DNA from: an uncultured bacterium
Lineage (GTDB): Bacteria; Omnitrophota; Omnitrophia; Omnitrophales; Aquincolibacteriaceae
Direction of reading: 5' to 3'
Assembly: GCA_964410905.1 (NCBI GenBank)
Contig: CAYPIR010000001.1
Coordinates: forward strand, 85,861-149,860
Length of the DNA: 64,000 bases
Shown piece by piece: positions 13,686 through 47,188 of this stretch (position 1 is its first letter; every line of letters starts with the position of its first letter). Made by a program: the position numbers and the translations under genes. The notes under the pieces were generated by a model. That model ran no database searches, was not told the origin of the DNA, and saw nothing but the letters and a program-made list of their open reading frames with translations.

Positions 13686-13848
13686 GGCTTAGAATAACCT
13701 TTCTTTAGAGTGAAAAGAGGCGGTATTTTAGCAATGATAGAAGGCATTGTGAAGAGTAAAAGAAGGTGGAATATGTCAAAATGGATTACCGAATGCTTTT
13801 CATGAATCGAGGCTATGTCAGCTCGCTCAATTTGATGCAGGGTCTGGT

Positions 13849-13918
13849 AAAAAAACGACATCGGTTCCAAACCTCCGCGTATTTTCGGCGGCATTGTTTG
13901 TCATCAATGTCGTTTTTT
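13849..13918 (-). repeat. Palindromic structured intergenic element copy E1 (A-run/CGACAT...ATGTCG/T-run; core ACAATGCCG in minus orientation). Probable bidirectional intrinsic terminator downstream of the giant gene
   Basis: Minus strand reads AAAAAACGACAT-TGATGACAAACAATGCCGCCGAAAATACGCGGAGGTTTGGAACCG-ATGTCGTTTTTTT. Confidence 0.6.
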
Positions 13919-14095
13919 ATTTAAACCGAGATATCGCTAAAAATCCACTCTAGCTGTCTCTTCGGCGCTTGTCCGTTACGCATCGGCGACAAGTCAATGC
14001 TCATTGCATTGACACAAACAAGCGAGACTTTGTCGTCTCGTCTAGTTTGAATTTGCCGATACGTGCAGGCGTGACGGCTTCGCCACTCACGTCCA

Positions 14096-17000
14096 TTACG
14101 CCGATCGCGCGATAAGCGACTGTTCGACAAAACGTTCCGCCAAAACGGCAATCGCGCTAATCCTAAAAACATTTCCATTTTTAGTAATACCCGGCAAATT
14201 CTCTTCTACAAATCTTGTCAAAAGGTCAGCCCGAACATCGGCGTCAGGAATATTGTGAATTAAATCCGCCGCCCTTTTCAATGCTGTGGCAAGAACGCTT
14301 GCGGCAAAAAGATTTTCGCCTCCCACTTTTTTATCAAGAATAAAATGATAACCGCTAGAAATAACGTTAGAGATATTTCCGCCTAAATCTAAGCAGATCA
14401 CGCTTCCGCCGCTTTGGGCTATCAACCGTTTTATAACCGTTATTTCCTTTTCCTTGCCTTCGCGGGCATGTTCAACACGAATAAGTTTATTATGTTTAAG
14501 CGCGGCAACTATGTTTGAGAGCATCTCTTTGTCATTGGCATCAACTACGTTTTTAGCCGACAGCGCTTTTTCAATTTTTTCTACAAGTTTGCGCTCGTCT
14601 TTGCTTACCGTCACAAATGCCGTTTCGATTCCATTTTCATAAGCCGCTTTTAGCAGATAAAAAAGCGCGCGCGGGCTATCACTAATAAACCGGGTTAAGA
14701 GCAATGGATCCATTAAAAGCGTTCCGCTGGGCAAATACTTTGTATTCACAGTCGCTTTGCCGGAAATTTCATCCGCGCCCCCTGTGCCGCGGTTAAAAAC
14801 AAAAGGCTTTGCTAAAAGACGCTGCCCTCCCGGAATCAATTTTTCTAAAACATCTGAAGAATCCTCTGACGAAAAATTATCATCTGAAATATCTATGAGA
14901 TCTCCAAGATATTCATAAAGTTCTGGAAACGCGTTTTCTTTCACAACTTTTTCATACAACCAAACTGGAATCAACCTATCGTAATATTCACGGATTATGA
15001 CGAGGAAAGATGAAGACATTATCTCCTTTGCGGTTTTTGCTTTTAAAGCCTGCCCATCAAATATCATATGTCTGTTTTGAATCTCTCCAAACTGGAATTT
15101 CAGAATCGCATCTGTCATAACATCCAAAGTGTTATACCAATAGATGACTCCAAACAAATCGCCTTGCTTTAACCCCAATGTTTTTTCCAACTCGAATTGA
15201 AATTCCACAAACTTGGTTTTGTCAAAACCAATATCATTAAAATGTTCCTGCACATACCGCGGCGCATTTGGCACAACGCGCCCTATTGCGCGTTGAATGC
15301 TGTTTCTAATTTCAACTCGCTTATCTGTGTTTTCGTCTTTTAAATACCTTGACTCGCTGCGGGCAGCCTCATCATCCTCTTCTTCCTCGCGCGCCGGCGG
15401 ACGAACACCCAAAAGTCTTTCTGATAAATTATCTGTTTTATTTAAAGCTCCACGCATTGCTATTTTGAAACGCACACGGGTAATATTCTGCTCTGTATCA
15501 ACCGCGCCGCTTCTTTTTCCGATGCCAATTTTTTTGTAATTAGCAAAATCTTTATCGCTAATTTCTGTTCCGTATTCTGTTTCCACTTTTTCACGGGCAA
15601 CGGCTGGAGCAAATTCTTTTTCTAGGAAAACGCGAAGGGAATGCGCGGATTTTGCCGTAATTATACTTAAAATTCCGGGGCCTCCGTTTTGAAACCTTCC
15701 AATTACTACCCAAGTAAAAATCGCGGAGATAGCCGCAAGTCCAAGCAAACTAGCCACCATGGAACTTCTTGCCAAATCGTGCGCTAAATAATCTAAAAAT
15801 CCCAGAGTCAGCAAAACGGTAGGCGTAAGCCCGATAAAAAATGCTAAATTCCTATGGGAGCTATATCTTTCAACTTCACGTAAAATATTAATAATTTTGC
15901 CTAACTCCCCATTTTCTACTAGCTCGCCGTATAGCGGATAATATTTAATCGCTTCAAAGGTTCGGCGAAGAAGCCCTATGTTTTCGCCAGTCGCATTTTG
16001 AACGATAAAGCCAATCTCAAAACGGGCTTCACTTTTCGCAACGTTCGCCTCAGAATATTCGTAAGAGGCGTTTGAATGAACAAACCCTTCTGTCACGACA
16101 GATTTGGGAACTGAAGATTCGTTTCCAGCCATTTCTAAATCAATTTCTGAGACTTGCGAAATATCGTTCAAACCCAATTTGTTAAGTTCCTTTACCAAAG
16201 AATCCCAAAGAGAGCCAGTTTCCGGCAATGTGTATTCCACCAAAATAGGTTTGCCATTTATCCATGCCGCAATCTGAATATTATTTATTGGCAGTCCATA
16301 AACTTTTTGTTTAATAAAATTAATTATTGAGCCTCTCTCGGCCCCATCGATAATAATTTTTATTGGCGGTAATTCGTTCCCTTTATGCCATTCTTTTGCC
16401 ATAGCAATGGATTGGCGCAAAAAATTATCAGAGAATCTCGAATCTGCCGCATGCTCTCTAGTCTCGCTTTTCACAACCAACGACGCTTCCAATCTGTCAA
16501 TTTTTAAATCTATAGCAGAAATTTCTTTTAAATTTTTTAAAAATATTGACGCGAGAGAAAGATAAGCATATGGCTTGTGTCGCGCTTGAGCATAACTATA
16601 GCGCCTTATAGGAGATGCTGCGTTTTCCCTGACAAGGTTATTTCTTTTTTCAAACAACATCTGAACCTCAGGGTCATTTCCATCATATGAATATTCCATC
16701 CAGTTACTGCGCTCTGACGCGCGCGAGGCAACTCTAGCCTTCAGGCGTTTTATGAGTCTATCAATCATGAGATTTATATCTTTAATAGCGTCTCGATTAC
16801 TCAAAAATTTCAAAGCAATAGGATCGCGGGCCTTTACCGCTTCTTGTAATTGGTAATCATAATAATTATTTACTTGTGAAGTTGCATTTTCACGAATAAG
16901 TTCGTTTCTTAGTCTATACAAATATCGCAGCTCCTGATCAATATCACGCTCACTTGAACGAGCAACATCATCTGTTTTTCCCTCATTTTTCTCCGCCACC

Positions 17001-20000
17001 GCTTTTTCGATTGCAGCGATGGCTTCTTCTACACTTTTTCTTGTCCAGTTTTTGTTATCAACTTTTTTATTAGATGGCAATTTTTCGAGAAATAATTTCA
17101 AAGGGACAAGTGCAGGTTCGGATTCAGCCCCCCAACGAATTAAGGCTAAACACATTTTATTGAAAACACTGCCTGAATCTTTTCTTTCAAAAGCAGCGAC
17201 AAGCTTTTCTATAACTTGAGGAGGAGGCTCTTTAATAAGGGCTATTATATTTGCAGCATCGGCACTGATTTTCCAATCGCTTGAATCTAAACGCATAAAC
17301 AGGAGGTCATATAAATTCTCTCTACCTTCTAATGCAATGCGCTCCATTATTTTATTTTTATCCGATTTATCTTCTGCAAAAGAAAGCCCCAACGTCCAAT
17401 CATCATCTGACAGTTTCACCTCTTTGGAGAGATACTGAACAACTTGCGAACTGGCATCTATCCCTTTAGGTAAATCCTTGAATCGTTCTCTTATCGCAAC
17501 GCTAGTCTTTATTTTTTCTATTGCATTTTTAACATCTTTCGCTGCCCGTCCATCATCTTTTTTATTCTTCTCAAAAGTTCGAGTCGGAAGTGTTTTGAGA
17601 TATTTTTCCAACTCTGGAATTGTTGAAGAAAATGCATACTTTGCAAGCGTGTCACAGATATATCCCACTAATCCATATGTCTTTCCAGAATTCAATTTTT
17701 CTAGCAAGTAGTCCGCTTCTTTTTTTGTCGGATTAGGGATTTCTGCTAAGGCACGAACAGCAGCCGTACTAACAAAAAAACTACTAGAAAAAAGTGATCT
17801 ATTGACTACGTCTATGGAAGCTGACGTATTTATTTTTACCAAAATAATCATCACTTCTTGATATTCGTCAGAGTTCATCGATTCATAATCTTTTGTGCGT
17901 TGAATAAAGACTGGCGCTAAATCATCAGGATATTTTTTGATAATCCTCTGATCCGCCGCGAGTTTTTTTGCCATTTCGTATTGTGTCTTGGCATCGCGGA
18001 TTTGTTTCATAACATTAATCATATCTTCCAAAACAGATTCATCATACGGTGTCCCAAGTAAAGCATAAGAAAGTGTCGCTCGAGCAACCAACACCTGAGG
18101 GTATAAAAGGCTATTTGTCTTCGAGCCTTTTATGATTTTCAAAAGTTCTGGTGCCGCTTTTTCCTTTGCATCTTCACCAATCAACCCCAACGCATGCGCC
18201 GCAAGCGGTTTTCCCGCCGCTAAATTTCCATTTAATTCCTCTATCAAAGGATCAACCGCAGATGCCCCAAACTTAGCTATAAGCGCCGCGGATTTTAACC
18301 CTACTTCGCTCGAAGCTTGCGAGCGAATATTTTTGAGTAAAAAATTAATAATTTCATCCTTCTTTTCAAGAATAGACTCATCTGCCGGATTATCACCTTC
18401 CGGCGTAAGCCGTTGTGATATTTCGCTAATGACCTGCAATTTTTGAGAATTCATTCCGAACTGAAATTGTTGTAAAAGTTTTTCAACAGGAGTTTTCGCT
18501 TTTTGTGCTTGAGAAAACCTTAAAGATTGCGTCTGCGCTGAAACAAACTCCGGTGCCAACGCTACGGAAAAACCGACAAGAAATGCTAACGCTAGCCTTT
18601 TTGCCGCTTGAGAAATTGCTAGGCCGTAGCGCATTATTTCCAACGCTCTAGCCTGCTCTTGAGCAGTAAGCCTTTCGGCTTCTTCAGCCGCAGCAACGGA
18701 GTCTTCCTCGCTTATATCGCTTGACATATCCTCATCTGCAGACCGCGTCTCAGACTTTGCGGGTGTCATATTATCCGCATCGGAAATTCTAGCTCTAACG
18801 GCGGCAAGAACTTCTGGATCTACTGTAACTTTTCGCGCCGTTTCTACTGTGGCTGCAACAACAGCTGGCGACACTCCCCCATCCGATACTGCTCGCGGAA
18901 CATCCCAAGCATAAGTCGAAGCTTTGGCGAGATTTGTAAAATTTCCCATTACCGCGTTGACATAATCTTTTCTTCCTCTTTCATCAACGGAAATCATCTG
19001 CGGCGTAATAAGAGCGTAAGTATAATTTTTATCCGAAAAGTATTTCTCAAAAGGTTTTGAGTGAAATCCTCCCGTAATGATCGCGACTCGCTTTGCGCCA
19101 AGCTCAGCTACGCGTTTTTCAATATTTTGCATCATTTCAAGATCGCGAGTTTTCGCCCCCGCGTAAAATGACATCGCGCGACCAAACAATTCATCTATTT
19201 TTTCCAAGTTCCCAAACGTTACATCTTTGACGCGCAAAACATCGTCATTTTGGGCAATTCCCCCAAAGCGGCTAGCAACTTTTGAAGGCAACAAGTTTCG
19301 CTCGCCTGCCAAAAGAATTTTTTCATAATCGTTTGCTGAAAGTTCTAGTGAAAAAAGTTTTTCTAAAACGCGATAATCTTTTAACACCGAGACAATCACC
19401 CTCTCCGCTGATGTTTTTGCCAGCCGCGCCACTATTTTTTCTTGCAAATTTTCTAGTTCAACAATAAGCGCTTCAGCCTTTATCTCGCTTTTTAAAAGAA
19501 GCGCGCCAATATAAAACCTGACATTTGGATATGCGTCATAATCAAAATCCGCTGGCAATCCTTTGACCATTTCTTCAAACAAAAAACCTGTTTCCGGATT
19601 AGGAAGCGCCAAATCACTATTTCTACTTGATAAAAGCCGTCCCACAGAAGCAAAAATGTCATCATATTTTTTATTTTGTGGAAAATTTTTTGCAAGCGTT
19701 CTTAAAAACTCAACACTTTCTTTAGAAAAAGAGACTTCATCTATTTTTGAATAAAATTCACGTAGTTTTAGAAGCCTGACAAATATTGGAAATTCAAATT
19801 GGTTTTGCGGTTCAGTTAAATCCAAATAAATAATTTTTTGTGCGGAATCTTTTAGAATAGTAATCCACGCGTCTAAAGACATTTTTGATGTTTCAAAATT
19901 TTCAAGATTACGTAAAAAAACTTTTAAGTCGTTTGAAAGATACGCGTCCGAAAATCTATTAACCGCTTCGTCCATTTTCCGTAAAAAATTCCCCGTTTTT

Positions 20001-20551
20001 TCCTTTGCTTTTATCGTTTCAGCAAACGCCTTTCCGTTCGCAATATATGAATCGAGATTTTCAATCCCATACGCTTTCGCGTCAGACTCAACTTTATCCA
20101 GCAAATAAAGTTCTTCGCCGCTAACAAGCGCCGCGCGCGTCAATGCGTCCGCTATTTTTTGATTAATCTCCTGATTTTGCGGAACAAAGTTTAAAGTCTC
20201 AGCTAAAACTTCCGAGGCAGAACCTTCTATCAGAAGCGTATCAATCCCATAATTTTTTTCTAAAAAATGAAGAATTTGTCTGATTTTTTGCTGCGCCTCA
20301 TACGAACCATGGGCGGTTTGAATATGCGCAATCATCGCGCCCTGCCCGGCTTTGAAGTTTTCTATTTTCCCAATATTGGCGGGCACAGAGAAAACAAAAT
20401 CCGCGTTGCGCGAAATCGCGACTTCGCTTTGCGGTATAAGGGATTGCGTTGCCGCCTGCAAATTAGGAACTGAGCCAAGACTTGTAAAAGCAAAAACTAC
20501 AACGGTAAAAAGTGAAACAACCGCTTTGGAAGTTTTGTTAAATTGATACAT
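14096..20551 (-). CDS. Giant (2151 aa) secreted/membrane protein with HEAT/PBS-lyase-like repeats; function unknown
   Basis: SD AAAGGA 8 nt upstream of ATG; N-terminal signal peptide ...FAFTSLGSVPNLQAATQ; HEAT-like AAHALGLIGEDAKEKAAPELLKII; two TM helices around residue 1650; single uninterrupted ORF. Confidence 0.8.
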   Translation of the reverse strand: MYQFNKTSKAVVSLFTVVVFAFTSLGSVPNLQAATQSLIPQSEVAISRNADFVFSVPANIGKIENFKAGQGAMIAHIQTAHGSYEAQQKIRQILHFLEKNYGIDTLLIEGSASEVLAETLNFVPQNQEINQKIADALTRAALVSGEELYLLDKVESDAKAYGIENLDSYIANGKAFAETIKAKEKTGNFLRKMDEAVNRFSDAYLSNDLKVFLRNLENFETSKMSLDAWITILKDSAQKIIYLDLTEPQNQFEFPIFVRLLKLREFYSKIDEVSFSKESVEFLRTLAKNFPQNKKYDDIFASVGRLLSSRNSDLALPNPETGFLFEEMVKGLPADFDYDAYPNVRFYIGALLLKSEIKAEALIVELENLQEKIVARLAKTSAERVIVSVLKDYRVLEKLFSLELSANDYEKILLAGERNLLPSKVASRFGGIAQNDDVLRVKDVTFGNLEKIDELFGRAMSFYAGAKTRDLEMMQNIEKRVAELGAKRVAIITGGFHSKPFEKYFSDKNYTYALITPQMISVDERGRKDYVNAVMGNFTNLAKASTYAWDVPRAVSDGGVSPAVVAATVETARKVTVDPEVLAAVRARISDADNMTPAKSETRSADEDMSSDISEEDSVAAAEEAERLTAQEQARALEIMRYGLAISQAAKRLALAFLVGFSVALAPEFVSAQTQSLRFSQAQKAKTPVEKLLQQFQFGMNSQKLQVISEISQRLTPEGDNPADESILEKKDEIINFLLKNIRSQASSEVGLKSAALIAKFGASAVDPLIEELNGNLAAGKPLAAHALGLIGEDAKEKAAPELLKIIKGSKTNSLLYPQVLVARATLSYALLGTPYDESVLEDMINVMKQIRDAKTQYEMAKKLAADQRIIKKYPDDLAPVFIQRTKDYESMNSDEYQEVMIILVKINTSASIDVVNRSLFSSSFFVSTAAVRALAEIPNPTKKEADYLLEKLNSGKTYGLVGYICDTLAKYAFSSTIPELEKYLKTLPTRTFEKNKKDDGRAAKDVKNAIEKIKTSVAIRERFKDLPKGIDASSQVVQYLSKEVKLSDDDWTLGLSFAEDKSDKNKIMERIALEGRENLYDLLFMRLDSSDWKISADAANIIALIKEPPPQVIEKLVAAFERKDSGSVFNKMCLALIRWGAESEPALVPLKLFLEKLPSNKKVDNKNWTRKSVEEAIAAIEKAVAEKNEGKTDDVARSSERDIDQELRYLYRLRNELIRENATSQVNNYYDYQLQEAVKARDPIALKFLSNRDAIKDINLMIDRLIKRLKARVASRASERSNWMEYSYDGNDPEVQMLFEKRNNLVRENAASPIRRYSYAQARHKPYAYLSLASIFLKNLKEISAIDLKIDRLEASLVVKSETREHAADSRFSDNFLRQSIAMAKEWHKGNELPPIKIIIDGAERGSIINFIKQKVYGLPINNIQIAAWINGKPILVEYTLPETGSLWDSLVKELNKLGLNDISQVSEIDLEMAGNESSVPKSVVTEGFVHSNASYEYSEANVAKSEARFEIGFIVQNATGENIGLLRRTFEAIKYYPLYGELVENGELGKIINILREVERYSSHRNLAFFIGLTPTVLLTLGFLDYLAHDLARSSMVASLLGLAAISAIFTWVVIGRFQNGGPGILSIITAKSAHSLRVFLEKEFAPAVAREKVETEYGTEISDKDFANYKKIGIGKRSGAVDTEQNITRVRFKIAMRGALNKTDNLSERLLGVRPPAREEEEDDEAARSESRYLKDENTDKRVEIRNSIQRAIGRVVPNAPRYVQEHFNDIGFDKTKFVEFQFELEKTLGLKQGDLFGVIYWYNTLDVMTDAILKFQFGEIQNRHMIFDGQALKAKTAKEIMSSSFLVIIREYYDRLIPVWLYEKVVKENAFPELYEYLGDLIDISDDNFSSEDSSDVLEKLIPGGQRLLAKPFVFNRGTGGADEISGKATVNTKYLPSGTLLMDPLLLTRFISDSPRALFYLLKAAYENGIETAFVTVSKDERKLVEKIEKALSAKNVVDANDKEMLSNIVAALKHNKLIRVEHAREGKEKEITVIKRLIAQSGGSVICLDLGGNISNVISSGYHFILDKKVGGENLFAASVLATALKRAADLIHNIPDADVRADLLTRFVEENLPGITKNGNVFRISAIAVLAERFVEQSLIARSA

Positions 20552-20821
20552 TAGAAATTCCTTTCGGATTATGGATTTAAATTTTCAAATTAAAATTTTT
20601 AAATAAAAACTGTTTTAGATTCATTTTTATATGTATTTATAAAGACGCGAAACCATAACACGCGTATTGGGATTCCGCAAGTGCGTCGGGATTTTTTTTA
20701 AAAGGATTTTTAATAGATCGGCATTGTGTGCCATTGTGGCGCAAGTTAATAATTTCGTGAATAGATTTAACTCTAAAAGTCGTTCTGTGCGTTGTTTTTT
20801 GACGTCTCAAAATCTTTTTAT

Positions 20822-20890
20822 AAAAAAAACGACATTAAGACCAGACAATGCCGTATGAAATAACGGAGGGCTGGTGTAATGTCGTTTTTT
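20822..20890 (+). repeat. Palindromic structured intergenic element copy E2 (core in plus orientation). Probable bidirectional terminator downstream of lpxA
   Basis: AAAAAAAACGACAT-TAAGACCAGACAATGCCGTATGAAATAACGGAGGGCTGGTGTA-ATGTCGTTTTTT. Confidence 0.6.
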
Positions 20891-21001
20891 ATAACTACCT
20901 TTTGGATTCTGCGACTACGCGCAGAATGACCGCTTAACAAAATCTGTCTGCGAAATTATTGACTTGCACTGGATCTAGCAATTAATTAAAGTGAGGAGTT
21001 A

Positions 21002-21838: not shown

Positions 21839-21850
21839 AAAAAATCTCTT

Positions 21851-23101: not shown

Positions 23102-23112
23102 CTTATTTTCTA

Positions 23113-24675: not shown

Positions 24676-24856
24676 ATTGGGAAAACCTCCTTGAGAGTCC
24701 CCTTCTTATTGGGATTGCATAAAAATGGGGGTTCTTTGCCGCTTTTCCCTTCGATGAACGCTGTGGTTTTTATCGAACGCCGCAAGAACGAGCGGAGTAT
24801 AACATAACTTTTTTATTTGTGAAGAGCCGTTAACGAAGAAACTTTTTTTATATTTT

Positions 24857-25693: not shown

Positions 25694-25699
25694 AATCGA

Positions 25700-26716
25700 C
25701 TAAATGTCTCGTCCAACCGCTTGTGCCACGAGTTTAACTTTTTGCATCATTTCATCAAACTGACGCGGTAAGAGCGATTGTTCGCCATCACTTTTCGCCT
25801 CTTCAGGTTTTTGATGAACTTCAACCATAAGCGCGTCGCAGCCGGCAGCAACTCCCGCCATGGCCATAGGCGTAACAAAATCTCTGTAGCCTGTGCCATG
25901 AGACGGATCGACAAGCGCAGGCAAATGTGTTTCCTTCTTGAGTACGGGGATTGCGTTTAAATCAAGAGTATTACGTGTTGATGTCTCAAATGTGCGAATG
26001 CCGCGCTCGCCAAGCAGCACTTTAAAATTGCCGTTTGCCAGCAAGTATTCCGCCGACATAAGCAAATCTTTTACAGTAGCGCTAAGGCCGCGCTTTAAAA
26101 GAACCGCTTTCTTTGATTTACCGCATTCCTTTAGCAAATCAAAATTCTGCATATTCCGCGCGCCAATTTGCAGCATATCCGCGTATTTGGAAACAAGCTC
26201 AACTTGACGCGTGTCCATAACTTCAGTCGCAACCAAAAGTCCTGTTTCGTCCGCTGCCTGTCTTAAGTATTTCAAGCCCTCTTCACCGAGTCCCTGAAAA
26301 GAATACGGCGATGTCCTTGGTTTAAACGCTCCGCCACGCAAAAATGTCGCACCCGATTTTTTTACCGCGCGCGCCACTTCCAAAAGCTTATCGTAACTTT
26401 CGACAGAACAAGGTCCCGCCATTACGACAATACGCTTGCCGCCGACTTTAACTCCATTGCCCATATCAAACTCGGTATTTTCAGATTTGTAATCACGACT
26501 TACAAGCTTGTATGGCTTTAAAATCGCCATTACGCTCTCTACGCCCGGAAACGCCTCCAGCGGCTGAACCTGCAGTTTTTCTTCATCGCCGATTACGCCG
26601 ATGACTGTCCGTTCTGCTCCGCGTGAAACATTTGGTTTTAGTCCAAGCTCGCGGACTTTTTCGCAAATATGCTCCAGCTCCTGCGGCGTTGCGCTTTTCT
26701 TAAGAACAATAATCAT
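25700..26716 (-). CDS. 3-deoxy-7-phosphoheptulonate (DAHP) synthase, type I-beta with N-terminal regulatory domain
   Basis: 338 aa, KDO8PS/DAHPS-like (beta/alpha)8 core VMAGPCSVES... Confidence 0.85.
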   Translation of the reverse strand: MIIVLKKSATPQELEHICEKVRELGLKPNVSRGAERTVIGVIGDEEKLQVQPLEAFPGVESVMAILKPYKLVSRDYKSENTEFDMGNGVKVGGKRIVVMAGPCSVESYDKLLEVARAVKKSGATFLRGGAFKPRTSPYSFQGLGEEGLKYLRQAADETGLLVATEVMDTRQVELVSKYADMLQIGARNMQNFDLLKECGKSKKAVLLKRGLSATVKDLLMSAEYLLANGNFKVLLGERGIRTFETSTRNTLDLNAIPVLKKETHLPALVDPSHGTGYRDFVTPMAMAGVAAGCDALMVEVHQKPEEAKSDGEQSLLPRQFDEMMQKVKLVAQAVGRDI

Positions 26717-26770
26717 AAATTTGACCCCTTAAAGTTTTATAAGTTACAAAATTAAATGTGAGTTTAAAAT

Positions 26771-27880
26771 TCAGTTTTTGGGATTTGCTCCCAAATATTC
26801 TTTTAGCAATTTTATAAATCTAACATTTTGCCCGCGTTTTCCAATCGTAACGCGAAGCCAATTGGGCAAGTTATAAGCGTTCATCGGGCGAACTATCATT
26901 CCCTGTTTTAGCAGCGCCTGATAAATTTCTCTACCGTTCCGTTTCATATTTACTAATACGAAATTCGCCTGACTCGGCAAATACTCAAGCCCCATTTTTT
27001 TGAACTGTTTATAGAAAAATTCTCGTCCGACAATTGTTACGCGTTTGGCTCGCCATAAAAAAAACGCGTCATCTATGGCCGCCACAGCCGCGGTTTGGGC
27101 CAGCGAATTAACATTAAACGGCTGGCGAACCTTATGCAAATATCCAACAATTTCTTTTGACGCGACGCCATACCCGATACGAAGTCCCGCGAGCCCATAA
27201 GCCTTAGAAAATGTCCGCAAAAGAACAACATTTGGGTTTTGGTCAGTGATATATTGAAGCGATTTGGGAAAATCTGGCGCATTGGCAAAATCGACATACG
27301 CTTCATCAATGCATATTAAAATATTTTTTGGAACCTTTGCTATAAAACCTTCAATTTCTGCCGCGTTCAAATATGTTCCAGTCGGGTTGTTGGGATTAAC
27401 AATAAAAATTATTTTTGTCTTTGGTGTAATAGCGCGCAAAATACCTTCGAAGTCGAAACGGTAATCCGTCGTCATCGGAACCTCTTTATAAGCTGTTCCG
27501 CATGCTTGCGTTAAAATTGGATAAACCAAAAAAGTTTTTTCTGACGATATAACCTCATCGCCTTCGGACAAAAATCCGCGCGCCAAAAGTTCAATAATTT
27601 CATTAGAGCCATTACCACAAATAATTTTTTCTTTATCGATTTTAAGAGTGTTAGAAAGTTTCTCTAAAAGATAATGGCAGCTTCCTTCCGGGTATAAGTT
27701 AATGTCACTAAGCGCGCGTTTGATTGCGCGGATAGCCTTTTTAGACGTGCCAAGCGGATTTTCATTAGACGCGAGCTTTATGATATTTTTAATTCCATAT
27801 TCGCGCTCAAGCTCTTTAATGGGCTTGCCCGGTTCGTAGTGTTTAATGTCCGATATGTATTTTTTAAATGGAATGCTCAT
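26771..27880 (-). CDS. hisC: Histidinol-phosphate / aromatic aminotransferase
   Basis: KLASNENPLG, PLP-lysine region RTFSKAYGLAGLRIGY. Confidence 0.85.
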   Translation of the reverse strand: MSIPFKKYISDIKHYEPGKPIKELEREYGIKNIIKLASNENPLGTSKKAIRAIKRALSDINLYPEGSCHYLLEKLSNTLKIDKEKIICGNGSNEIIELLARGFLSEGDEVISSEKTFLVYPILTQACGTAYKEVPMTTDYRFDFEGILRAITPKTKIIFIVNPNNPTGTYLNAAEIEGFIAKVPKNILICIDEAYVDFANAPDFPKSLQYITDQNPNVVLLRTFSKAYGLAGLRIGYGVASKEIVGYLHKVRQPFNVNSLAQTAAVAAIDDAFFLWRAKRVTIVGREFFYKQFKKMGLEYLPSQANFVLVNMKRNGREIYQALLKQGMIVRPMNAYNLPNWLRVTIGKRGQNVRFIKLLKEYLGANPKN

Positions 27881-27892
27881 TTGGTTTATTAT

Positions 27893-28972
27893 TTAATCTT
27901 TCGTTTTTTCTATTGACGGATAAGAACCGAGAACCTTCAAAAACTTTACACTTTTCTCCATCTCTTTGAGAGTTTTAGAAATTCTCGCGTCTCCAATATG
28001 CCCTTCCAAATCAATATAAAAATAATATTCCCATGCCTTTTTTTTGGACGGACGCGATTCTATCTTAGTCATATTTACTTTACTTTCTTTTATGGGCAAA
28101 AGCATATCGTAAAGAGCCCCTATCTTGTCGCGAACGGACACGAGTATTGATGTTTTATCGCTTTTGGTTTTTGCTGGGATTTGCCTCGCTATAACGAGAA
28201 ATCTTGTGACATTGTTAGAAAAATCTTGAATGCTCTCTGCGACAATGGGCACATTATAAAAAGTTGCCGCGAGCTTTGAACCTATCGCCGCCGAAGCATT
28301 TTCGTCCGCGGCGCGTTTTGCCGCAGCGGCCGTACTTGATGCATCCAAAAGCTCCGCGTGATGAAGATTTTTCTCAAGCCATAAACGACATTGTCCCAAC
28401 GCTTCTGATTTAGAATAAACACGCTTAATATTTTTAAAATCTTTTTCATTAGAAATTAAATTTTGTACAATTTCGGAGTAAATTTCTGAACAAATTTTAA
28501 GATCAGAATCAATAAACATATCAAGAGTATGACTCACCCCTCCATCAATTGAGTTTTCTATCGGAGTAACTCCATAATCCGCACGCCCCTGCTCCACTTC
28601 CCTAAAAATTTCACTTATACTCGCGCACGAGAGATATTCAACGCTTGAACCGAACTTTGATACTGCCGCCAAATGCGTGAAAGTCGCTTCAGGCCCTAAA
28701 TACGCGATTTTAAGAGGTTTTTCCAAAGCTAGCGCCGCGGACATAATTTCACGGTAAATCGATTTAAGAGCGTCCTTAGGCAAAACTCCTTTTGCATTTA
28801 ATTCATCTAATTTTTGATATACTTCACTTTCGCGCTCCGGAGCATAAATTTCTTTTCCCGATTCAATTTTTTTCTTTCCAACTTCGCGGGCAAGTTCCGT
28901 CCTGCTATTCAAAAGCTCGACTATTTTTTTGTCCAAATCATCAATTTTTTTTCGTATTTGTGCCAAATCCAT
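27893..28972 (-). CDS. pheA: Bifunctional chorismate mutase / prephenate dehydratase (P-protein) with ACT domain
   Basis: CM helix region IRKKIDDLDKKIVELLNSR, PDT motif GPEATFTH, ESRPS ACT motif. Confidence 0.9.
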   Translation of the reverse strand: MDLAQIRKKIDDLDKKIVELLNSRTELAREVGKKKIESGKEIYAPERESEVYQKLDELNAKGVLPKDALKSIYREIMSAALALEKPLKIAYLGPEATFTHLAAVSKFGSSVEYLSCASISEIFREVEQGRADYGVTPIENSIDGGVSHTLDMFIDSDLKICSEIYSEIVQNLISNEKDFKNIKRVYSKSEALGQCRLWLEKNLHHAELLDASSTAAAAKRAADENASAAIGSKLAATFYNVPIVAESIQDFSNNVTRFLVIARQIPAKTKSDKTSILVSVRDKIGALYDMLLPIKESKVNMTKIESRPSKKKAWEYYFYIDLEGHIGDARISKTLKEMEKSVKFLKVLGSYPSIEKTKD

Positions 28973-29844
28973 CAGAATACCTCGCCTTCGTTTTTTTCAC
29001 CATTCTCTTGCGTGTCTTGTGCCGTCTCGCTCTCTTTTGCGTCTAAATCGCCCGCGGCACTTGCTTCATCTTTGTTATTTTCCGCCGCGTCGGCTTGCGG
29101 AATGTCGACTATTTTTTTAGTCCTCAGCAATTCTTCTTTTTTTACGGAACTCTCGACCATATTACGAATTTCATCAATGCTCGGCAAATCTTTTAATGTT
29201 TTAAGCCCAAAGTGCTCCAAAAATTTTTCTGTCGTGCCATACATAAAAGGACGGCCGGGCACTTCTTTTTTACCGACAATCTTTATAAAGTTTTTCTCCA
29301 TCAAAGTTGTTAAAACACCGCTAGCGTCCACGCCGCGCAGCGATTCAATTTCAGCGCGCGTAAGCGGTTGTTTATAAGCTAAAATCGCCAAGGTTTCGAG
29401 CGCGGATTGCGTCGCCTGCCGAGCTTTTTTTTGTAATTCTATTTTCAAGATCCATGGCGCAAATTCTTTCTTAGTGGAAAGCTCGTAACCGCCGGCAACT
29501 TCTATAAGTTCAAAACATCTATCGCCTTTTTGATACTCTTCACGAAGTTCCGCCACGATTTGAGAAATCTGCGCCGTGGTTAAAACTTTAGTAACTTTGC
29601 GAATCTCCGCGGGTGTAAGAGGTTTTGACGAAGCAAAAATTAAAGCCTCCACAATCTTTTTTGCTTTAGACAAATCCTGTAAGTCTTCTTCCCGAAGGCT
29701 TTCGACCTCGAACCGTTGCGCTCCGGTCAAACTCTCCAAAGCATTTTTTTCTTCTAATTGCTCTTGAATTTCTTGGTCAAGTTCTTTACGAAGAGCTTTA
29801 ATTTTTGCTTGTTTTTCTCGTTCTTGCACAGCTTGGTTTTTCAT
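28972..29844 (-). CDS. scpB: Segregation and condensation protein B, with about 90-aa acidic C-terminal tail
   Basis: EALIFASSKPLTPAEI winged-helix motif. Confidence 0.85.
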   Translation of the reverse strand: MKNQAVQEREKQAKIKALRKELDQEIQEQLEEKNALESLTGAQRFEVESLREEDLQDLSKAKKIVEALIFASSKPLTPAEIRKVTKVLTTAQISQIVAELREEYQKGDRCFELIEVAGGYELSTKKEFAPWILKIELQKKARQATQSALETLAILAYKQPLTRAEIESLRGVDASGVLTTLMEKNFIKIVGKKEVPGRPFMYGTTEKFLEHFGLKTLKDLPSIDEIRNMVESSVKKEELLRTKKIVDIPQADAAENNKDEASAAGDLDAKESETAQDTQENGEKNEGEVF

Positions 29845-29856
29845 AATTTATTTATA

Positions 29857-30882
29857 CTATTCCTCTTCCCTTTTTTCAATGAGGATTTCTCCAAATTGTT
29901 TGTCTTGCTTTACCCACGCGAAACGCGTTTTGACAATTTCAAGAATCGCTAAAAAAGTCGCTATAAGTTCATTGCGAGTCCAGTGTTCTGAAAACAAATC
30001 GTTAAACGCCACTTTGCGTTTTTGCGTCAAAAGAGATTGCAGCTGAATCATTTTTTCTTCAATGGAAATCATTTCCTCAAAGACTTCGTGCTCCGATTTT
30101 GTCTCTTTTTTGGCGAGAACGTTCTGAAAAGCAACGATCAAATCAAAAAAATTGGCGCTAAATGTGTTTATGCCCAAGTCTTCCGGCTCCACATCTCCAA
30201 GATAATAATCGCTAATTTGTCGCGTAAACACTTTGCCGCGTTCTGTCTGCAAAACCCCAAGTCCTTTCGCCGCCTCTTTAAACGCCTGATATTCCAAAAG
30301 TTTTCTGACAAGTTCCGCGCGAGGGTCTTCGCCATCAGCATCTTCTTCGTTTTTGTCTGTCGGAAGCAGCATTTTTGATTTGATGTAAATAAGCGTTGCC
30401 GCCATAACAATAAATTCGCCCGCTATCTCTAGATCAAGCTGTTTCATTAACTTTAAATAATCGAGATACTGTTTGGTAATCTCGGAAACTTGAATGTCAT
30501 AAACATTCATTTCATTTTTCTTTATTAAATCCAAAAGCAAGTCGAGAGGCCCATCATACGCGGAAATCTTAATGTGTAGAGGATTAAAGTCTTTGGCGGG
30601 CGCGACGTTATCACTCGCCTGTGCTTCAGAAGGGATGTCCGATCCTACAGGCAACTGCGTATCGTGAGGAGAACTTTCAGAAACAGTATCAGCATCGTCA
30701 GCAGATTTTACATCTTGTCCGGATGGCGTCTCAACGTCCGCGGCAACATGCGGTTGTTCAGGCGTTACTTCGCGATCCCCATCGCCTGCAGCGTTTCCTT
30801 GAGCGTCTTGCTTGCTATCTGTCGTGCTTTCTCCGCTCCCCTGTTCAATATTTCCCTGATTTGTGTTTTCTTCGTTAGCCAT
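29857..30882 (-). CDS. scpA: Segregation and condensation protein A (kleisin), with about 95-aa acidic low-complexity N-terminal extension
   Basis: YDGPLDLLLDLIKKNEMNVYDI core motif; annotated ATG start overlaps the trpS 3' end by 118 nt. Confidence 0.8.
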   Translation of the reverse strand: MANEENTNQGNIEQGSGESTTDSKQDAQGNAAGDGDREVTPEQPHVAADVETPSGQDVKSADDADTVSESSPHDTQLPVGSDIPSEAQASDNVAPAKDFNPLHIKISAYDGPLDLLLDLIKKNEMNVYDIQVSEITKQYLDYLKLMKQLDLEIAGEFIVMAATLIYIKSKMLLPTDKNEEDADGEDPRAELVRKLLEYQAFKEAAKGLGVLQTERGKVFTRQISDYYLGDVEPEDLGINTFSANFFDLIVAFQNVLAKKETKSEHEVFEEMISIEEKMIQLQSLLTQKRKVAFNDLFSEHWTRNELIATFLAILEIVKTRFAWVKQDKQFGEILIEKREEE

Positions 30883-31754
30883 TCTTCTCGTCTTTCCCTT
30901 ATGGGATTTAAGTATTCATTCAATTTTTCAGCCATTTGCATTTTGCAATCCACGCAGCCGCGCACCGCGTTTTGACATTCGCTTGAAATAGTCTCCGCGT
31001 TATTAGCGTTAAACAGTTTATGATAAAAATAAACAGGACAAACTTCCGGGTGTCCTTTGTCCGAGCGAAGTTTCCGGGCAGGATCAGTTACCATTGTCTT
31101 GATTTTTTTTATTACCTCTTCTCGAGAGTCGCTAAGATAAATACAATTATCGTAACTTTTACTCATCTTGCGTCCATCAAGACCAGGAACCCGTGGAACT
31201 TTTGTCAAAACCGCGTCCGGCTCGGGAAAAACTTTCTTTTTATATAAATGGTGAAACCGCCTGACAATTTCGCGCGTAAGTTCCAAATGCGGCAACTGGT
31301 CCTCGCCTACCGGAACTTTATTTGCTTTATAAAGAACAATATCGGCCGCTTGCAAAACAGGATAGCCCAAAAACCCGTGAGTATTTAAGTCCTTGCCCTT
31401 AATTTCATTCTGCTGGTCTTTATACGTTGGATTCCGCTCGAGCCAGCCGAGCGGCGTAATCATAGAAAAAAGAAGCGAAAGACTGGCATGTTCCAGAACT
31501 TCGCTTTGCACAAACATAACGCATTTTTCCGGATCAAGTCCGCTTGCTAAATAATCCAGCAGAACTTCAAACACATTTTCGGCAATAGCGGTTTTAGATT
31601 CGTATTCCGTAGTCAAAGCGTGAAGATCGGCTATCATAAAAAACGCTTCGCCGCCTTGCAAATTTTTGAAATTTTCAACCGCGCCGAGGAGATTTCCTAA
31701 ATGCAGTTTTCCGGTAGGGCGAACACCGCTTAAAACCCGTGAAGACATAAACAC
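30765..31754 (-). CDS. trpS: Tryptophanyl-tRNA synthetase
   Basis: SGVRPTGKLHLGN (HIGH-class), KMSKS present, 329 aa. Confidence 0.9.
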   Translation of the reverse strand: MFMSSRVLSGVRPTGKLHLGNLLGAVENFKNLQGGEAFFMIADLHALTTEYESKTAIAENVFEVLLDYLASGLDPEKCVMFVQSEVLEHASLSLLFSMITPLGWLERNPTYKDQQNEIKGKDLNTHGFLGYPVLQAADIVLYKANKVPVGEDQLPHLELTREIVRRFHHLYKKKVFPEPDAVLTKVPRVPGLDGRKMSKSYDNCIYLSDSREEVIKKIKTMVTDPARKLRSDKGHPEVCPVYFYHKLFNANNAETISSECQNAVRGCVDCKMQMAEKLNEYLNPIRERREEWLTKKTQIREILNRGAEKARQIASKTLKETLQAMGIAK

Positions 31755-31807
31755 AAAACTCCGTTTAAAGAATTATGACTACTGAAAATTGAAAAGAAAT
31801 TCAAATC

Positions 31808-32542
31808 TTAAATTCCTATATTCCGGTCTGTATCTTCAGACTTACGATAATCCATCGTCATTTTACCTTTTGCAAAAGTAATACGCTCCATTTTTATCTT
31901 AGCATTTCCCGATCGGACGTAAGCCTTGAGGAATAGGTTTTCAAAAGCTCGCAAAATATGCTGCGGTAATTTTAATTTCCCAACTTGAAGCATTTCTATT
32001 TTAAGGAAAAGCTTATCTTCTGCACCACGTGCAGTAGACGCGCTACCTCGAAGCGTTATTGGCGTTCCAAGAATTTTGGCGTAAAAAATAAATGTTTCCG
32101 GGAAAAATTGCAAAGTTACGTTTTTGAAAAATTTACTGCGTTCAATCTCGCCTAAAAAGCCTTTGGTACGGATAGTTTCGTTTGTGTATTCAACCGTAAA
32201 CTCGCGGCGTTTTGTCTTTTTTGCCTCTTTATACATATAGTATCGGGCGCGGTCTACGCCATCTGTTACGGCAGGGACAAGCCATTCTAGCCAAAAAGGC
32301 ACACCATCGGCAGAAGAGGAAAGAGTAGAGACTGTTATGGATTCCCCTGCTTTAGCAGAGCCCTCAAATGTAAGAGCGTCTCCATTTCTCGCGCCAAAAA
32401 CATCCACCACGCCTTCATCAACGCGGTAATATGTTTTAGATCCTTTGGTGAAAGGATTGCCAACGGGAACATAAAGAATTAGCGCGAATGCGGTAAAAAA
32501 AACTATGAGAAGCGCGACAGCAATAAATATAATATTTTTCAT
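31808..32542 (-). CDS. Hypothetical membrane-anchored (N-terminal TM) protein
   Basis: 244 aa, MKNIIFIAVALLIVFFTAFALILYV anchor, no recognised motif. Confidence 0.5.
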   Translation of the reverse strand: MKNIIFIAVALLIVFFTAFALILYVPVGNPFTKGSKTYYRVDEGVVDVFGARNGDALTFEGSAKAGESITVSTLSSSADGVPFWLEWLVPAVTDGVDRARYYMYKEAKKTKRREFTVEYTNETIRTKGFLGEIERSKFFKNVTLQFFPETFIFYAKILGTPITLRGSASTARGAEDKLFLKIEMLQVGKLKLPQHILRAFENLFLKAYVRSGNAKIKMERITFAKGKMTMDYRKSEDTDRNIGI

Positions 32543-32644
32543 AACCCCCGCATTCTACTAATCCTTTTTATGTCGTCAAATTATATTCATTGGATTAGAA
32601 AAAATATTAAGGCGGCTTATATCTCGAGAGAAAGACAAGTGAGG

Positions 32645-32669
32645 ATCCCCGCCTCATAGAGGCGGGGAT
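32645..32669 (-). terminator. Perfect 11-bp GC-rich hairpin (ATCCCCGCCTC-ata-GAGGCGGGGAT), 12 nt after the stop of the 32681-33480 gene; probable terminator
   Basis: Read directly; followed on the minus strand by pyrimidine-rich CCUCACUUGUCUUUCUCU. Confidence 0.4.
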
Positions 32670-32680
32670 ATATTGCGGAA

Positions 32681-33480
32681 CTAATTGATTTTAAGTTTGC
32701 TCTCATCAAACACAAAACCAGAATCAAGCGACTTAATTTCTTCAACCAAACGCAGAACTCTCTCACGCATTTCAGGCGTTTTGTTTTTTAGCCATGTCGC
32801 GTAAGCGTCCAAAAAGAACTCCACCTTGATGTCTTTTAGGTGTTTCCGCTCATATTGATTTACGCTTTTGACAAAATATCCAAACGATTGTTCTCTAAAA
32901 CAATCTATCAATCGGAAATAGTCATCTTTCATTCCTGAAAGAATGTTTTTATACGCGTCAAATTGCGCGCCAAGTTTTTCCAGTACAATTCCAATGCCTG
33001 TTTTTTTATTGTTCATTCCTTCGTGGCAGCGCGCCGCCTGATTGTAATAAAGAATCGCGGCCAAACGGTCCTCACTTTTGTCCTCCTTTGGTTGTTTAAG
33101 GGAGAATCGTTTAGCCAAAAAAGAGTCTGGATTAAAAATTGTGGACTGCGTCAGTAAATGGTCAGCGTTCACTTTAAATATAAAATAACGCAGCGTAGGA
33201 TCATCGGTCTCTCTTACCCATTCAAACACCTCTTGCGTATTGTGAGACAGAAAAGGATCCGCCATATCGTGATATTCGGGCAAAGACATCGCAAAGAGAA
33301 GATGCGCCAAATAAATATTCACATCCTCATCAGAGTTCTTTCCCACTGTTAAAAATTTGTGTTGGTCGCGGGATTTTAAAATAGACTCCAACAAAAAGAA
33401 AATAGCCGAGTCCCGATCTTCACTGCTGAGGTTAAAATAAAGTTGAGGAGGTTTAAGTCCGCTGAAGCTTTTAGCTCCCA
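32681..33480 (-). CDS. Hypothetical cytoplasmic protein (266 aa). Start reassigned to ATG 33480 with SD AAAGGAG; the longer track ORF to 33685 runs through an AT-rich promoter region
   Basis: aaaGGAGaaagcaaaATG context; no family recognised. Confidence 0.5.
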
Positions 33481-33687
33481 TTTTGCTTTCTCCTTTATTA
33501 TGGCAATTTATAACATTTGTATATTTTAGACTACTTCTTAATTCTGTTTGAACCATAACATTGCAATATATAAAAGTCAAATGCAATAATAACATTAAAG
33601 AATGTAAGTTCTTTGTTTTCAATATGTTAAATAGAATAAAAAAATTATTTTGATGCGATGAAATTCCTTCGCTTTGCAGAGCCAAAT
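33481..33687 (-). promoter_or_regulatory. AT-rich (about 75% AT) putative promoter region for the 32681-33480 gene
   Basis: Composition only; lies between upstream element E3 and an SD-ATG. Confidence 0.3.
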
Positions 33688-33752
33688 AAAAAAACCATTA
33701 ATAACAAACAATGCAACAAAAAACGTTGCGGCTTGAAATTAATGGCTTTTTT
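33688..33752 (+). repeat. Palindromic structured intergenic element copy E3 (outer stem CCATTAAT/ATTAATGG, core ACAAACAATGC). Probable terminator downstream of recO
   Basis: AAAAAAACCATTAAT-AACAAACAATGCAACAAAAAACGTTGCGGCTTGAA-ATTAATGGCTTTTTT. Confidence 0.55.
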
Positions 33753-33818
33753 ATTTAATGACAATAGTTTGGATTCTGCGAACTACTTCTCAACAAATGG
33801 CGAGCGGCTTGTAGAAAA

Positions 33819-39101: not shown

Positions 39102-39168
39102 GAAAACTTAATTTCTCCTACAAAAAAAACTGTTGGAATTTTTCGTCATCATAACAGAAGCGACGCAC

Positions 39169-39210
39169 AAAAAAAAGCCCGTCTCTTAAACTAAAAGAGA
39201 CGGGCTTTTA
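39169..39210 (-). terminator. Rho-independent terminator downstream of rpsU (GCCCGTCTCTT-aaactaaa-AGAGACGGGC flanked by A8/T5)
   Basis: Perfect 11-bp stem read directly; U-run on the minus strand. Confidence 0.75.
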
Positions 39211-39228
39211 AAAACAAGTTTCTGCAAT

Positions 39229-47161: not shown

Positions 47162-47188
47162 ACAAACTAACTTCAAACCAACTAAAAA

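Follow-up and report, generated by a model that had tools for sequence, protein, structure and literature searches.

Homologous stem-loop elements at three operon ends of an Omnitrophota genome: a probable family of bidirectional terminators

REPs are 20–40 nt long, carry a conserved GTAG-type head (GT(A/G)G), number in the hundreds, frequently arranged in doublets, and are accompanied by a genomic RAYT gene; the roles known for REP and BIME sequences include termination and mRNA stabilisation. Small MITEs include the IS630-derived Correia elements of Neisseria, RUP, BOX and SPRITE of pneumococcus, and ERIC. The attC sites of integrons have an R''/R' consensus with AAC...GTT. Specific sequences may also be built into terminators. 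USS of Pasteurellaceae and DUS of Neisseria are 9–12-mers with about 1000 or more copies per genome, some of them within genes (Kingsford et al. 2007, PMC1852404). In the terminators that contain them the stem is an inverted pair of the motif, and about 55% of Neisseria terminators carry DUS; in bidirectional terminators generally, pairing between the tails can extend the stem (PMC1852404). Finally, a survey of stem-loop repeats in 40 genomes described 92 families, 67 of which were previously undescribed (Cozzuto et al. 2008, PMC2267715).

The window, that is, the whole 64-kb stretch of DNA analysed here, from an uncultured Omnitrophota bacterium, contains three imperfect palindromes of about 70 nt each (E1, E2 and E3), which share the layout A-run, P1, P2, P3, T-run (Table 1). 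They are present, as a preliminary description of this DNA had claimed, at 13849-13918, 20822-20890 and 33688-33752, and each hairpin is bordered by A6–8 on one side and T6–7 on the other. The stems had likewise been read correctly: P1 is CGACAT/ATGTCG in E1 and E2 and CCATTAAT/ATTAATGG in E3, P2 is CAAAC/GTTTG in E1 and ACCAG/CTGGT in E2, and P3 is CCGC/GCGG in E1, CCGT/ACGG in E2 and GCAAC/GTTGC in E3. The P1 of E3 does differ from the other two, but not as an unrelated stem: it corresponds to that of E1/E2 after a symmetric 2-bp deletion (GA/TC), together with G-to-A changes that are matched by C to T. Folding energies on both strands range from −20.5 to −30.8 kcal/mol (z −4.3 to −8.3; equalled by 0 of 200 shuffles). 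For E1, E2 and E3, respectively, the minus-strand RNA folds at −27.6, −25.4 and −30.8 kcal/mol and continues into U7, U8 and U7, and the plus-strand RNA folds at −25.2, −28.1 and −20.5 kcal/mol and continues into U6. Logan contigs carrying this organism are 2–7 kb long, all inside the window; L187 and L188, two independent assemblies, both carry E3 without a single difference, and its sequence is therefore real, not an assembly artefact. Small open reading frames starting at the ATG of the cores encode unconserved peptides and have no ribosome-binding site, and were rejected.

Table 1. Coordinates of E1–E3, their parts and the adjacent tail blocks (plus-strand numbering in the window)
Feature	Position	Orientation or strand	Details
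E1	13846..13921	minus	model search 94.8 bits; E1+E2-only model 87.8 bits
E1 A7	13849-13855		
E1 P1	13856-13861 with 13906-13911		
E1 core ACAAACAATGC	13891-13901	minus	
E1 T6	13913-13918		
E1 candidate tail-block variant TGGATTTTTAGCGA	13934..13947	-	inverted, gapped; 15 nt from E1, gene-proximal; uncertain
E2	20819..20895	plus	model search 79.3 bits; E1+E2-only model 77.3 bits
E2 A8	20822-20829		
E2 P1 CGACAT	20830-20835		
E2 core CCAGACAATGC	20841-20851		
E2 T6	20885-20890		
E2 tail block TTTGGATTCTGCGACTAC	20901..20918	+	10 nt past T-run, gene-proximal side
E3	33684..33756	plus	model search 86.6 bits; leave-one-out 40.8 bits
E3 A7	33688-33694		
E3 P1 CCATTAAT	from 33695		
E3 core ACAAACAATGC	33704-33714		
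E3 T6	33747-33752		
E3 tail block TTTGGATTCTGCGAACTAC	33768..33786	+	15 nt past T-run, gene-proximal side

Judged by their sequences, E1, E2 and E3 are homologous and do not resemble each other by chance, as follows from the score of E3 under a model built without it, from five pair changes on both sides of the stems and from the symmetric deletion in P1. The covariance model made from E1 and E2 alone detects E3 at 40.8 bits (E=1.9e-6), compared with 25.4 bits for the antisense strand of E3 and 25.7 bits for a plain terminator at 39169-39213. When the whole window was searched, the antisense strands of the three elements scored 25–42 bits versus 79–95 bits for the sense strands, and the ordinary terminators of the window scored at most 26 bits with the covariance model. 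Local alignments of the inner parts, stripped of the A- and T-runs, gave scores of 26, 29 and 23 versus a null of 13–14 (sd about 2), values that 0, 0 and 3 of 2000 shuffles reached. Alignments in the opposite orientation remained at the null level, and the elements thus have polarity. In a hand-made structural alignment 97% of the cells are paired and double changes affect 5 of 23 pairs; 2 of 500 shuffles were as good and slid controls paired at 36–53%, but the power of the covariation statistic is low, as only three sequences, aligned by hand, enter it.

It is hardly credible that E1–E3 are three independent ordinary terminators, alike by chance or by convergence on an A-run, a hairpin and a T-run. 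True, the A/T runs alone earn any bidirectional terminator about 15–26 bits in the models, and a blastn-short search of the whole window with the inner parts returns only an 11-mer (E about 0.5). However, the leave-one-out score of E3 lies about 15 bits above both its own antisense strand and plain terminators, the co-linear alignments exceed the 2000-shuffle null in one orientation only, the identical 11-mer occupies the equivalent position in the fold, and E2 and E3 share an additional 19-nt block in their flanks. The alignments and the leave-one-out model therefore bear out the proposal of one family with a conserved architecture, compensatory stem changes and an oriented core. For the further step of the preliminary description, from covariation to selection for an RNA fold, the compensatory changes are ambiguous evidence: correction of quasipalindromes at the DNA level can also make symmetric changes in a palindrome.

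The oriented core, MCARACAATGC, is present in all three elements. In the form claimed initially it is exact in E1 and E3 (ACAAACAATGC), whereas E2 has CCAGACAATGC, with one mismatch to the proposed regular expression. The core 11-mer has three matches in the 64-kb window, all inside E1–E3 and none in genes, and 9 of its 10 columns are invariant, whereas the rest of the inner part has 18 invariant columns of 48 (Fisher p=0.004). E2 and E3 each have a gene-proximal tail block; the two blocks are identical at 18 of 19 positions (z=6.2; 0 of 300 shuffles by local alignment) and extend these two units to about 100 nt, and the spacer between block and hairpin is unconserved. The block of E2 also takes part in a small hairpin, as one of its two arms (ATTCTGCG at 20906-20913 with CGCAGAAT at 20920-20927). 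The pattern TGGATTN{0,6}GCGA, which includes the candidate variant beside E1, has 5 matches versus 1.8 expected, and the E1 variant is not significant by local alignment. Degenerate block copies on the other flanks were rejected (14 versus 11.9 expected at up to three mismatches; local alignment not significant), as were nine matches of the 18-mer in viral sequences, all in one unrelated phage coding gene.

As noted in the preliminary description, the core lies on the minus strand in E1 and on the plus strand in E2 and E3; because the genes are co-directional on the minus strand, this argues against a strand-specific RNA. We accordingly regard as very unlikely a functional RNA, such as a set of 3'UTR-derived small RNAs, in which the single-stranded GUAGU(U)CGCAGAAUCCAAA would act as the seed and the hairpin with its U-tail as a stabilising or chaperone-binding end. 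Such an RNA would agree with the compensatory changes in P2 and P3 and with the 18/19-identical block, which in E2 and E3 lies in mRNA sense 10–15 nt upstream of the hairpin beside an unconserved spacer. Yet the core is in sense only in E1, being antisense in the other two elements, which leaves no single RNA sequence common to the three; E1 lacks the block in mRNA-sense orientation, part of the E2 block is tied up in a hairpin of its own, and none of the elements matches an Rfam family even at E<=5. The indifference of the core to the direction of transcription would suit a DNA-level recognition signal within terminators, either uptake-signal-like or protein-binding, for which the relevant feature would be the double-stranded core ACAAACAATGC(C). 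The core is indeed more conserved than its surroundings and present in about half of the local terminators, recalling the DUS terminators of Neisseria, and ACAATGCC occurs 5 times versus 1.6 expected, with 4 of the 5 in the two spacers bordering the giant gene. Nevertheless, we find a signal of this kind most unlikely: uptake signals number about 1000 or more per genome and also occur in coding DNA (PMC1852404), whereas the 64 kb contain three instances of the 11-mer, none of them within genes, the ACAATGC 7-mer is not enriched in the window (12 versus 8.7 expected), and the core does not form an inverted pair that builds the stem, as the motif does in USS/DUS terminators.

The elements lie at the ends of operons. 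All genes neighbouring E1–E3 are on the minus strand. E1 lies 177 nt past the stop codon of the giant gene and 163 nt before the start of tyrS, with the predicted tyrS promoter (13753-13725) beyond it; E2 is downstream of rpsA-fabF-lpxA, 111 nt past the lpxA stop and 270 nt before the start of the giant gene; E3 is downstream of hisS-aspS-phoH-ybeY-recO, 66 nt past the recO stop, and the next gene after it has a promoter-like site (TTGACT-17-TATGGT, 33580-33552) that is conserved in four relatives. The elements are thus 3' of the giant gene, lpxA and recO, as had been claimed, but with gaps of 177, 111 and 66 nt not immediately so. The other recognisable terminator hairpins in the window are at 39173-39209 and 47101-47167, E1–E3 making up roughly half. 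A reading of E1 as a T-box or attenuator of tyrS was rejected, as it has no Rfam hit and the predicted tyrS promoter is downstream of E1.

Taken together, E1–E3 are probably copies of one small lineage-specific dispersed stem-loop repeat that is used as a Rho-independent terminator at operon ends. As predicted from sequence alone, RNA polymerase would read the minus-strand genes through the element, P3, then P2 and then the 12–14-bp P1 would zip into a hairpin of −25 to −31 kcal/mol, and the U7–8 tract directly after it would release the transcript. The A-run on the other side would be the equivalent signal for opposite-strand transcription, and the bidirectional termination suggested earlier fits the U-tracts on both strands and the sites at operon boundaries. 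Selection for the hairpin and/or palindrome correction during replication has probably preserved the pairing of the arms.

Several properties sit less easily with a terminator. An AU-rich stem (CGACAUU, CCAUUAAU) borders the U-tract, and the length of the hairpin far exceeds that of a textbook terminator. Terminator function alone leaves unexplained why the 11-nt internal-loop core and the 19-nt tail block are conserved more strongly than the stems. All local genes run in the same direction, giving bidirectionality no obvious need, and the "dispersed family" amounts to three known sites within 20 kb.

No copy of E1–E3 was found in about 118 kb of DNA from relatives, including the orthologous lpxA and recO spacers, and no model score there exceeded 21 bits; at 62–78% protein identity these relatives are too distant to show empty sites. 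Two of them (L150 and L189) have a different, shorter hairpin at the recO spot, so the site appears to need a hairpin, whereas its sequence is unconserved. The absence from orthologous sites shows that the copies are acquisitions specific to this lineage; mobility would agree with this but is not proved by it. E1 and E2 are not the ends of a recently acquired giant-gene cassette, since a giant gene is syntenic beside lpxA in element-free relatives. We infer that the copies arose by copying at the DNA level after the lineage had split from its known relatives, which would account for a core in either orientation relative to the genes; the route could be trans-mobilisation, recombination or gene conversion.

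The preliminary description had gone further and proposed a mobile or recombination-associated element, for which the window offers no consistent target-site duplication, no transposase or RAYT among 28 scanned ORFs and no further copy. The flanks contain no consistent direct repeat; they read (A/T)AT preceding the A-run and A(T/C) following the T-run, extend the palindrome and are so A/T-rich that a 2-bp TA duplication is uncallable. The terminal inverted repeats, in which A-run and P1 pair with the T-run side over 14 bp, are such as any bidirectional terminator has. We consider it unlikely that E1–E3 are an active non-autonomous mobile element (a MITE, or a palindrome-associated element of the REP/RAYT or IS200/IS605 type), with the P1 arms and/or the core as the site for a transposase encoded elsewhere in the genome and termination as a by-product of a hairpin in an A/T-rich insertion context. 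On one hand, such an element would agree with clear internal polarity and both orientations relative to genes, with ends and core conserved while the inner stems vary freely (E1 and E2 share 12–13 identical nt per P1 arm and have an interior about 70% identical), with the absence from orthologous sites in relatives and with the additional block common to the E2 and E3 flanks. On the other hand, no transposase, RAYT, Y1 protein or parent insertion sequence is among the 28 ORFs scanned (all within 955-37836), the two other assemblies covering E3 show no presence/absence variation, and a fourth copy was found neither in the 64-kb window (model search, filters off) nor in the collection scans. Moreover, the tail block (at E1, its candidate variant) is gene-proximal at all three sites though E1 is inverted, an arrangement not to be expected from a rigid transposed unit.

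A more specific idea, which we put forward as distinctly unlikely, is that the core and the 19-nt tail block are recognition sites for a lineage-specific protein that copies or uses these hairpins throughout the genome. This protein may be a transposase, of the RAYT/Y1 type or another, or a factor that binds DNA or RNA. If so, E1–E3 would represent a new family of mobile "terminator cassettes" in Omnitrophota, the source of many terminators of the genome.

Wider searches returned no relatives of the family. At gathering score no Rfam 15 family matched any part of the window, and at E<=5 over 13600-34000 only SmY and Bacteroidales-2 appeared, both weak and unrelated. The pattern A6C...MCARACAATGC...T5, too loose for its result in a genome collection to count for or against the family, matched at least 117 loci from unrelated taxa there, with the three-stem fold in none of the matches listed, and 32 viral sequences by chance; one viral look-alike (L011) was rejected as a member at 19.8 bits with a weak fold (z −2.2). 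A strict pattern gave 28 metagenome matches, none with the architecture, which is weak evidence, as that collection is without this organism. The E1/E2 P1 arms had no match in viral sequences, and blastn against plasmids and phages returned nothing meaningful. The earlier remark that the family was not a recognised one is fair for the sequence, but the kind of element is well known.

What the elements mean depends on their number. If abundant genome-wide, they would provide the first description of a small dispersed repeat from Omnitrophota, whose members are known almost exclusively through metagenomes, and would serve as a ready marker for operon ends and strain typing. They would add another genome that draws many terminators from one propagating sequence, as Neisseria and Pasteurellaceae do from uptake signals, and the strongly conserved core and tail block would suggest a not-yet-known binding protein. 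If only three copies exist, they are a local curiosity of no wider consequence.

Compared with described systems, E1–E3 resemble bidirectional intrinsic terminators in having, downstream of the stop codons that close operons, a stable hairpin with an A-tract on one side and a T-tract on the other. Unlike ordinary terminators, they have a hairpin of about 55 nt with three nested stems, internal loops and an AU-rich basal stem, and a homologous sequence with a conserved asymmetric core recurs at three sites. A specific conserved sequence recurring inside terminators is also the hallmark of USS/DUS terminators, but here the core is single, asymmetric and partly in an internal loop, has three occurrences in 64 kb and shows no enrichment beyond the elements. 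REP/BIME sequences are likewise short imperfect extragenic palindromes 3' of genes in both orientations; E1–E3, however, are about 70 nt long and single, no RAYT is among the scanned window ORFs, and the hairpin begins with an A-run and then CGACAT or CCATT, its foot lacking a GTAG head. An attC-like reading was rejected, as E1 and E2 have AAC...GTT but not the rest of the R''/R' consensus and E3 lacks GTT. With small MITEs the elements share inverted-repeat ends, a short asymmetric interior, an intergenic position in either orientation, restriction to a lineage and co-transcription with neighbouring genes, but their ends are simply A-run and T-run plus 6–8 bp, and no consistent target-site duplication was found. 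They are exactly the class of intergenic repeats with a common predicted stem-loop surveyed by Cozzuto et al. (2008, PMC2267715), although the survey, outside which Omnitrophota lay, described families of 9–164 members each and this one has three known members. E1–E3 therefore add a new member to a familiar class of bacterial repeats, REP-, MITE- or USS-terminator-like, and do not constitute a new kind of system.

The three intergenic elements E1, E2 and E3 (see table) resemble one another beyond chance. Direct inspection of the sequence bore out the preliminary description as to their coordinates and nested stems (an outer stem P1, a second stem P2 and an inner hairpin P3), and alignment and a covariance model confirmed that the three structured elements are related. 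The A-run measures 6–8 nt and the T-run 6–7 nt, and the elements rank among the longest short-range inverted repeats of the window. RNA folding of both strands gave energies of −20.5 to −30.8 kcal/mol (z −4.3 to −8.3), matched by 0 of 200 dinucleotide shuffles on either strand. The core, a conserved 11-mer, reads ACAAACAATGC exactly in E1 and E3 and CCAGACAATGC in E2, and its only matches within 64 kb are those in the three elements.

Positions of the three hairpin elements and of the tail block, a 19-nt sequence beyond the T-run
Element	Position	Strand of core	Structure	Distance past stop codon	Tail block
E1	13849-13918	minus	A-run, long imperfect hairpin, T-run	177 nt (giant gene)	13934-13947 (-), look-alike
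E2	20822-20890	plus	A-run, long imperfect hairpin, T-run	111 nt (lpxA)	20901-20918 (+)
E3	33688-33752	plus	A-run, long imperfect hairpin, T-run	66 nt (recO)	33768-33786 (+)

Local alignment restricted to the inner parts, with the A and T runs stripped, produced scores of 26 (E1–E2), 29 (E1–E3) and 23 (E2–E3) against a shuffle null of 13–14 (sd ~2); these scores were reached by 0, 0 and 3 of 2000 shuffles, respectively. Scores in the opposite orientation were at the null level; the elements are therefore internally polar, E1 being inverted with respect to E2 and E3. When the window was searched without filters, a covariance model derived from E1 and E2 alone recovered E3 with 40.8 bits and E=1.9e-6. 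The same model gave 25.4 bits on the antisense strand of E3, and 25.7 and 15 bits on the ordinary terminators of the window (39169-39213 and 47104-47164, respectively). No fourth copy was detected in the window by the three-sequence model, the next best match scoring 22.7 bits, and blastn-short searches of the inner parts against the window recovered just the 11-mer (E~0.5). The case for homology is one of co-linear similarity within a single fold, with no long exact repeat behind it.

In a structural alignment of E1–E3 built by hand with N as gap filler (14 pairs in P1, five in P2 and four in P3), standard pairs occupy 97% of the cells, and in five pairs (one each in P1 and P2, and three out of four in P3) both bases have changed, so that the compensatory changes noted in the preliminary description are real. 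The pairing values were reached by 2 of 500 shuffles, and sliding the partner by 1–3 columns left pairing at 36–53%; with three sequences and a hand-fitted alignment, the covariation statistic has little power. The P1 arms of E3 align as homologs of those of E1 and E2, from which they differ by a symmetric 2-bp deletion (GA in one arm, TC in its partner) and by G→A substitutions with matching C→T. Symmetric changes in DNA palindromes can also be produced by template-switch 'quasipalindrome correction' during replication. Therefore, the symmetric stem changes alone are no proof of selection on an RNA fold. Within the core (alignment columns 24–33), 9 of 10 columns are invariant, versus 18 of 48 in the remaining inner part (Fisher p=0.004), and each P1 arm has 12–13 bases identical between E1 and E2.

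One database protein, on a 153,953-bp contig, is 100% identical to RecO of the window. All relatives that carry source names are Candidatus Omnitrophota/Omnitrophica MAGs, the closest being 69% identical. The window has a GC content of ~42%, and its minus strand carries nearly all genes. The elements lie in two gene arrays, tyrS / E1 / giant gene (encoding 2151 aa) / E2 / lpxA-fabF-rpsA and 334-aa unknown gene / E3 / recO-ybeY-phoH-aspS; the scanned neighbors are all housekeeping genes. Only roughly a quarter of the giant protein (14096-20551 (-)) is common to other giant proteins. These span 1204–3704 aa in the homology search, and those few that have a named source come from Omnitrophota. 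Their enzyme domains differ widely, among them UDPGP, isocitrate lyase / malate synthase / PEPCK, hexokinase and glutamate dehydrogenase. In one relative (GCA_964606385.1; locus L195, 10001-10861), a gene for a 4906-aa giant protein adjoins lpxA, even though lpxA has the opposite orientation to fabF and rpsA. The sequence ACAATGCC occurs five times in the window versus 1.6 expected; additional copies at 13743-13750 (-) and 20720-20727 (-) lie in the E1 and E2 spacers, closer to where tyrS and the giant gene begin, and the former overlaps the predicted tyrS −35 box. The window also contains a GC-rich hairpin, ATCCCCGCCTC-ATA-GAGGCGGGGAT, lacking a clear U-tract (32640-32668, in the spacer that separates the unknown genes of 244 aa and 334 aa), and two ordinary GC-rich terminators unrelated to E1–E3 (39173-39209 and 47101-47167). 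According to synteny with two related loci (L150 and L191), the first of these terminators probably marks the end of rpsU (S21), a small gene left unannotated in the spacer 39102-39538.

Each element is located where a transcription unit ends. A predicted tyrS promoter follows E1, E2 stands between the giant gene and the lpxA operon, and E3 has the recO stop on one side and a sigma-70-like promoter (TTGACT-17-TATGGT, 33580-33552) on the other. Four relatives retain this promoter in front of their homolog of the next gene. For the gene after E3 there are two competing starts: TTG at 33685 (-), 2 nt from E3, and ATG at 33481 (-), ~200 nt further, which has a good AAAGGAGA ribosome-binding site and was chosen by one independent gene call. 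Since the conserved promoter lies between the two, the ATG start is favored. In two relatives (loci L150 and L189), the spot downstream of recO is occupied by a different, shorter hairpin; thus, this position appears to need a hairpin, while its sequence is not conserved. In minus-strand RNA, all three elements form a strong hairpin directly followed by U7–8, and on the plus strand the tract is U6. This anatomy matches that described for bidirectional intrinsic terminators (PMC1852404). Taken together, sequence and position suggest that E1–E3 most likely act as bidirectional intrinsic terminators.

Beyond the hairpins, the only significant flank similarity (z=6.2) is the tail block TTTGGATTCTGCG(A)ACTAC common to E2 and E3 (18/19 identical), which is separated from the T-run by 10–15 nt and faces the upstream gene. 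The spacer connecting it to the hairpin is not homologous between E2 and E3, so its conservation appears to be separate. In E2 the block provides an arm of a small hairpin (20906-20913 with 20920-20927). A gapped, inverted look-alike, TGGATTTTTAGCGA, is found on the gene-proximal flank of E1 at a distance of 15 nt, and reached no significance in local alignment. The pattern TGGATTN{0,6}GCGA has five matches in the window (1.8 expected), three of which adjoin the elements. The idea of a strand-specific small RNA fails, as two of the three copies carry the core antisense to transcription; the tail block of E2 and E3 leaves a small opening for 3′UTR-derived RNAs.

Filter-free searches of ~76 kb and ~42 kb of relatives' loci, including the orthologous recO-downstream and lpxA–giant-gene spacers, returned no match above 21 bits (RecO and LpxA of these relatives are 62–69% and 76–78% identical, respectively). 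Rfam yielded no match at the gathering score and none relevant at E≤5, and searches of viral, metagenome, plasmid and phage sequences gave chance matches only. Two Logan assemblies of separate sequencing runs contain E3 in identical form, with no polymorphism, so it is not an assembly artefact. The absence of the elements from the relatives' loci searched suggests that the copies were gained in this lineage after its split from the sampled relatives. Such lineage restriction, together with copies in both orientations, conserved ends and core, and the additional flank block in E2 and E3, fits the REP/MITE-like mobile element proposed in the preliminary description. On the other hand, the flanks of E1–E3 show no consistent target-site duplication, none of the 28 ORFs scanned (all within 955-37836) is a transposase, and the tail block (at E1, its look-alike) is gene-proximal at all three sites although E1 is inverted, which would not be the case for a rigid transposed unit. 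The preliminary interpretation is thus partly supported: the idea of one family with compensatory changes holds, whereas its mobility is no more than a possibility. That E1 and E2 bracket a recent insertion was rejected, as a giant gene is syntenic beside lpxA in relatives without the elements.

Intergenic repeat families with a common stem-loop are frequent in bacteria; a survey of 40 genomes found 92 of them, 67 previously undescribed (PMC2267715). REP/BIME, Correia, ERIC, RUP and terminators built from USS/DUS (PMC1852404) represent the classic cases. The E1–E3 family works like these cases, but appears to belong to none of them. It has neither the head nor the size of REP. Of the hallmarks of MITEs, neither a consistent target duplication in the flanks nor, among the ORFs scanned, a parent insertion sequence was found. 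Nor does it have the frequency or the inverted-pair build of USS: an uptake signal is at odds with three occurrences of the 11-mer in 64 kb (12 versus 8.7 expected for the 7-mer) and with a single core in place of an inverted pair. E1–E3 are best regarded as a new family of stem-loop repeats, with three members so far, from a phylum that is uncultured.
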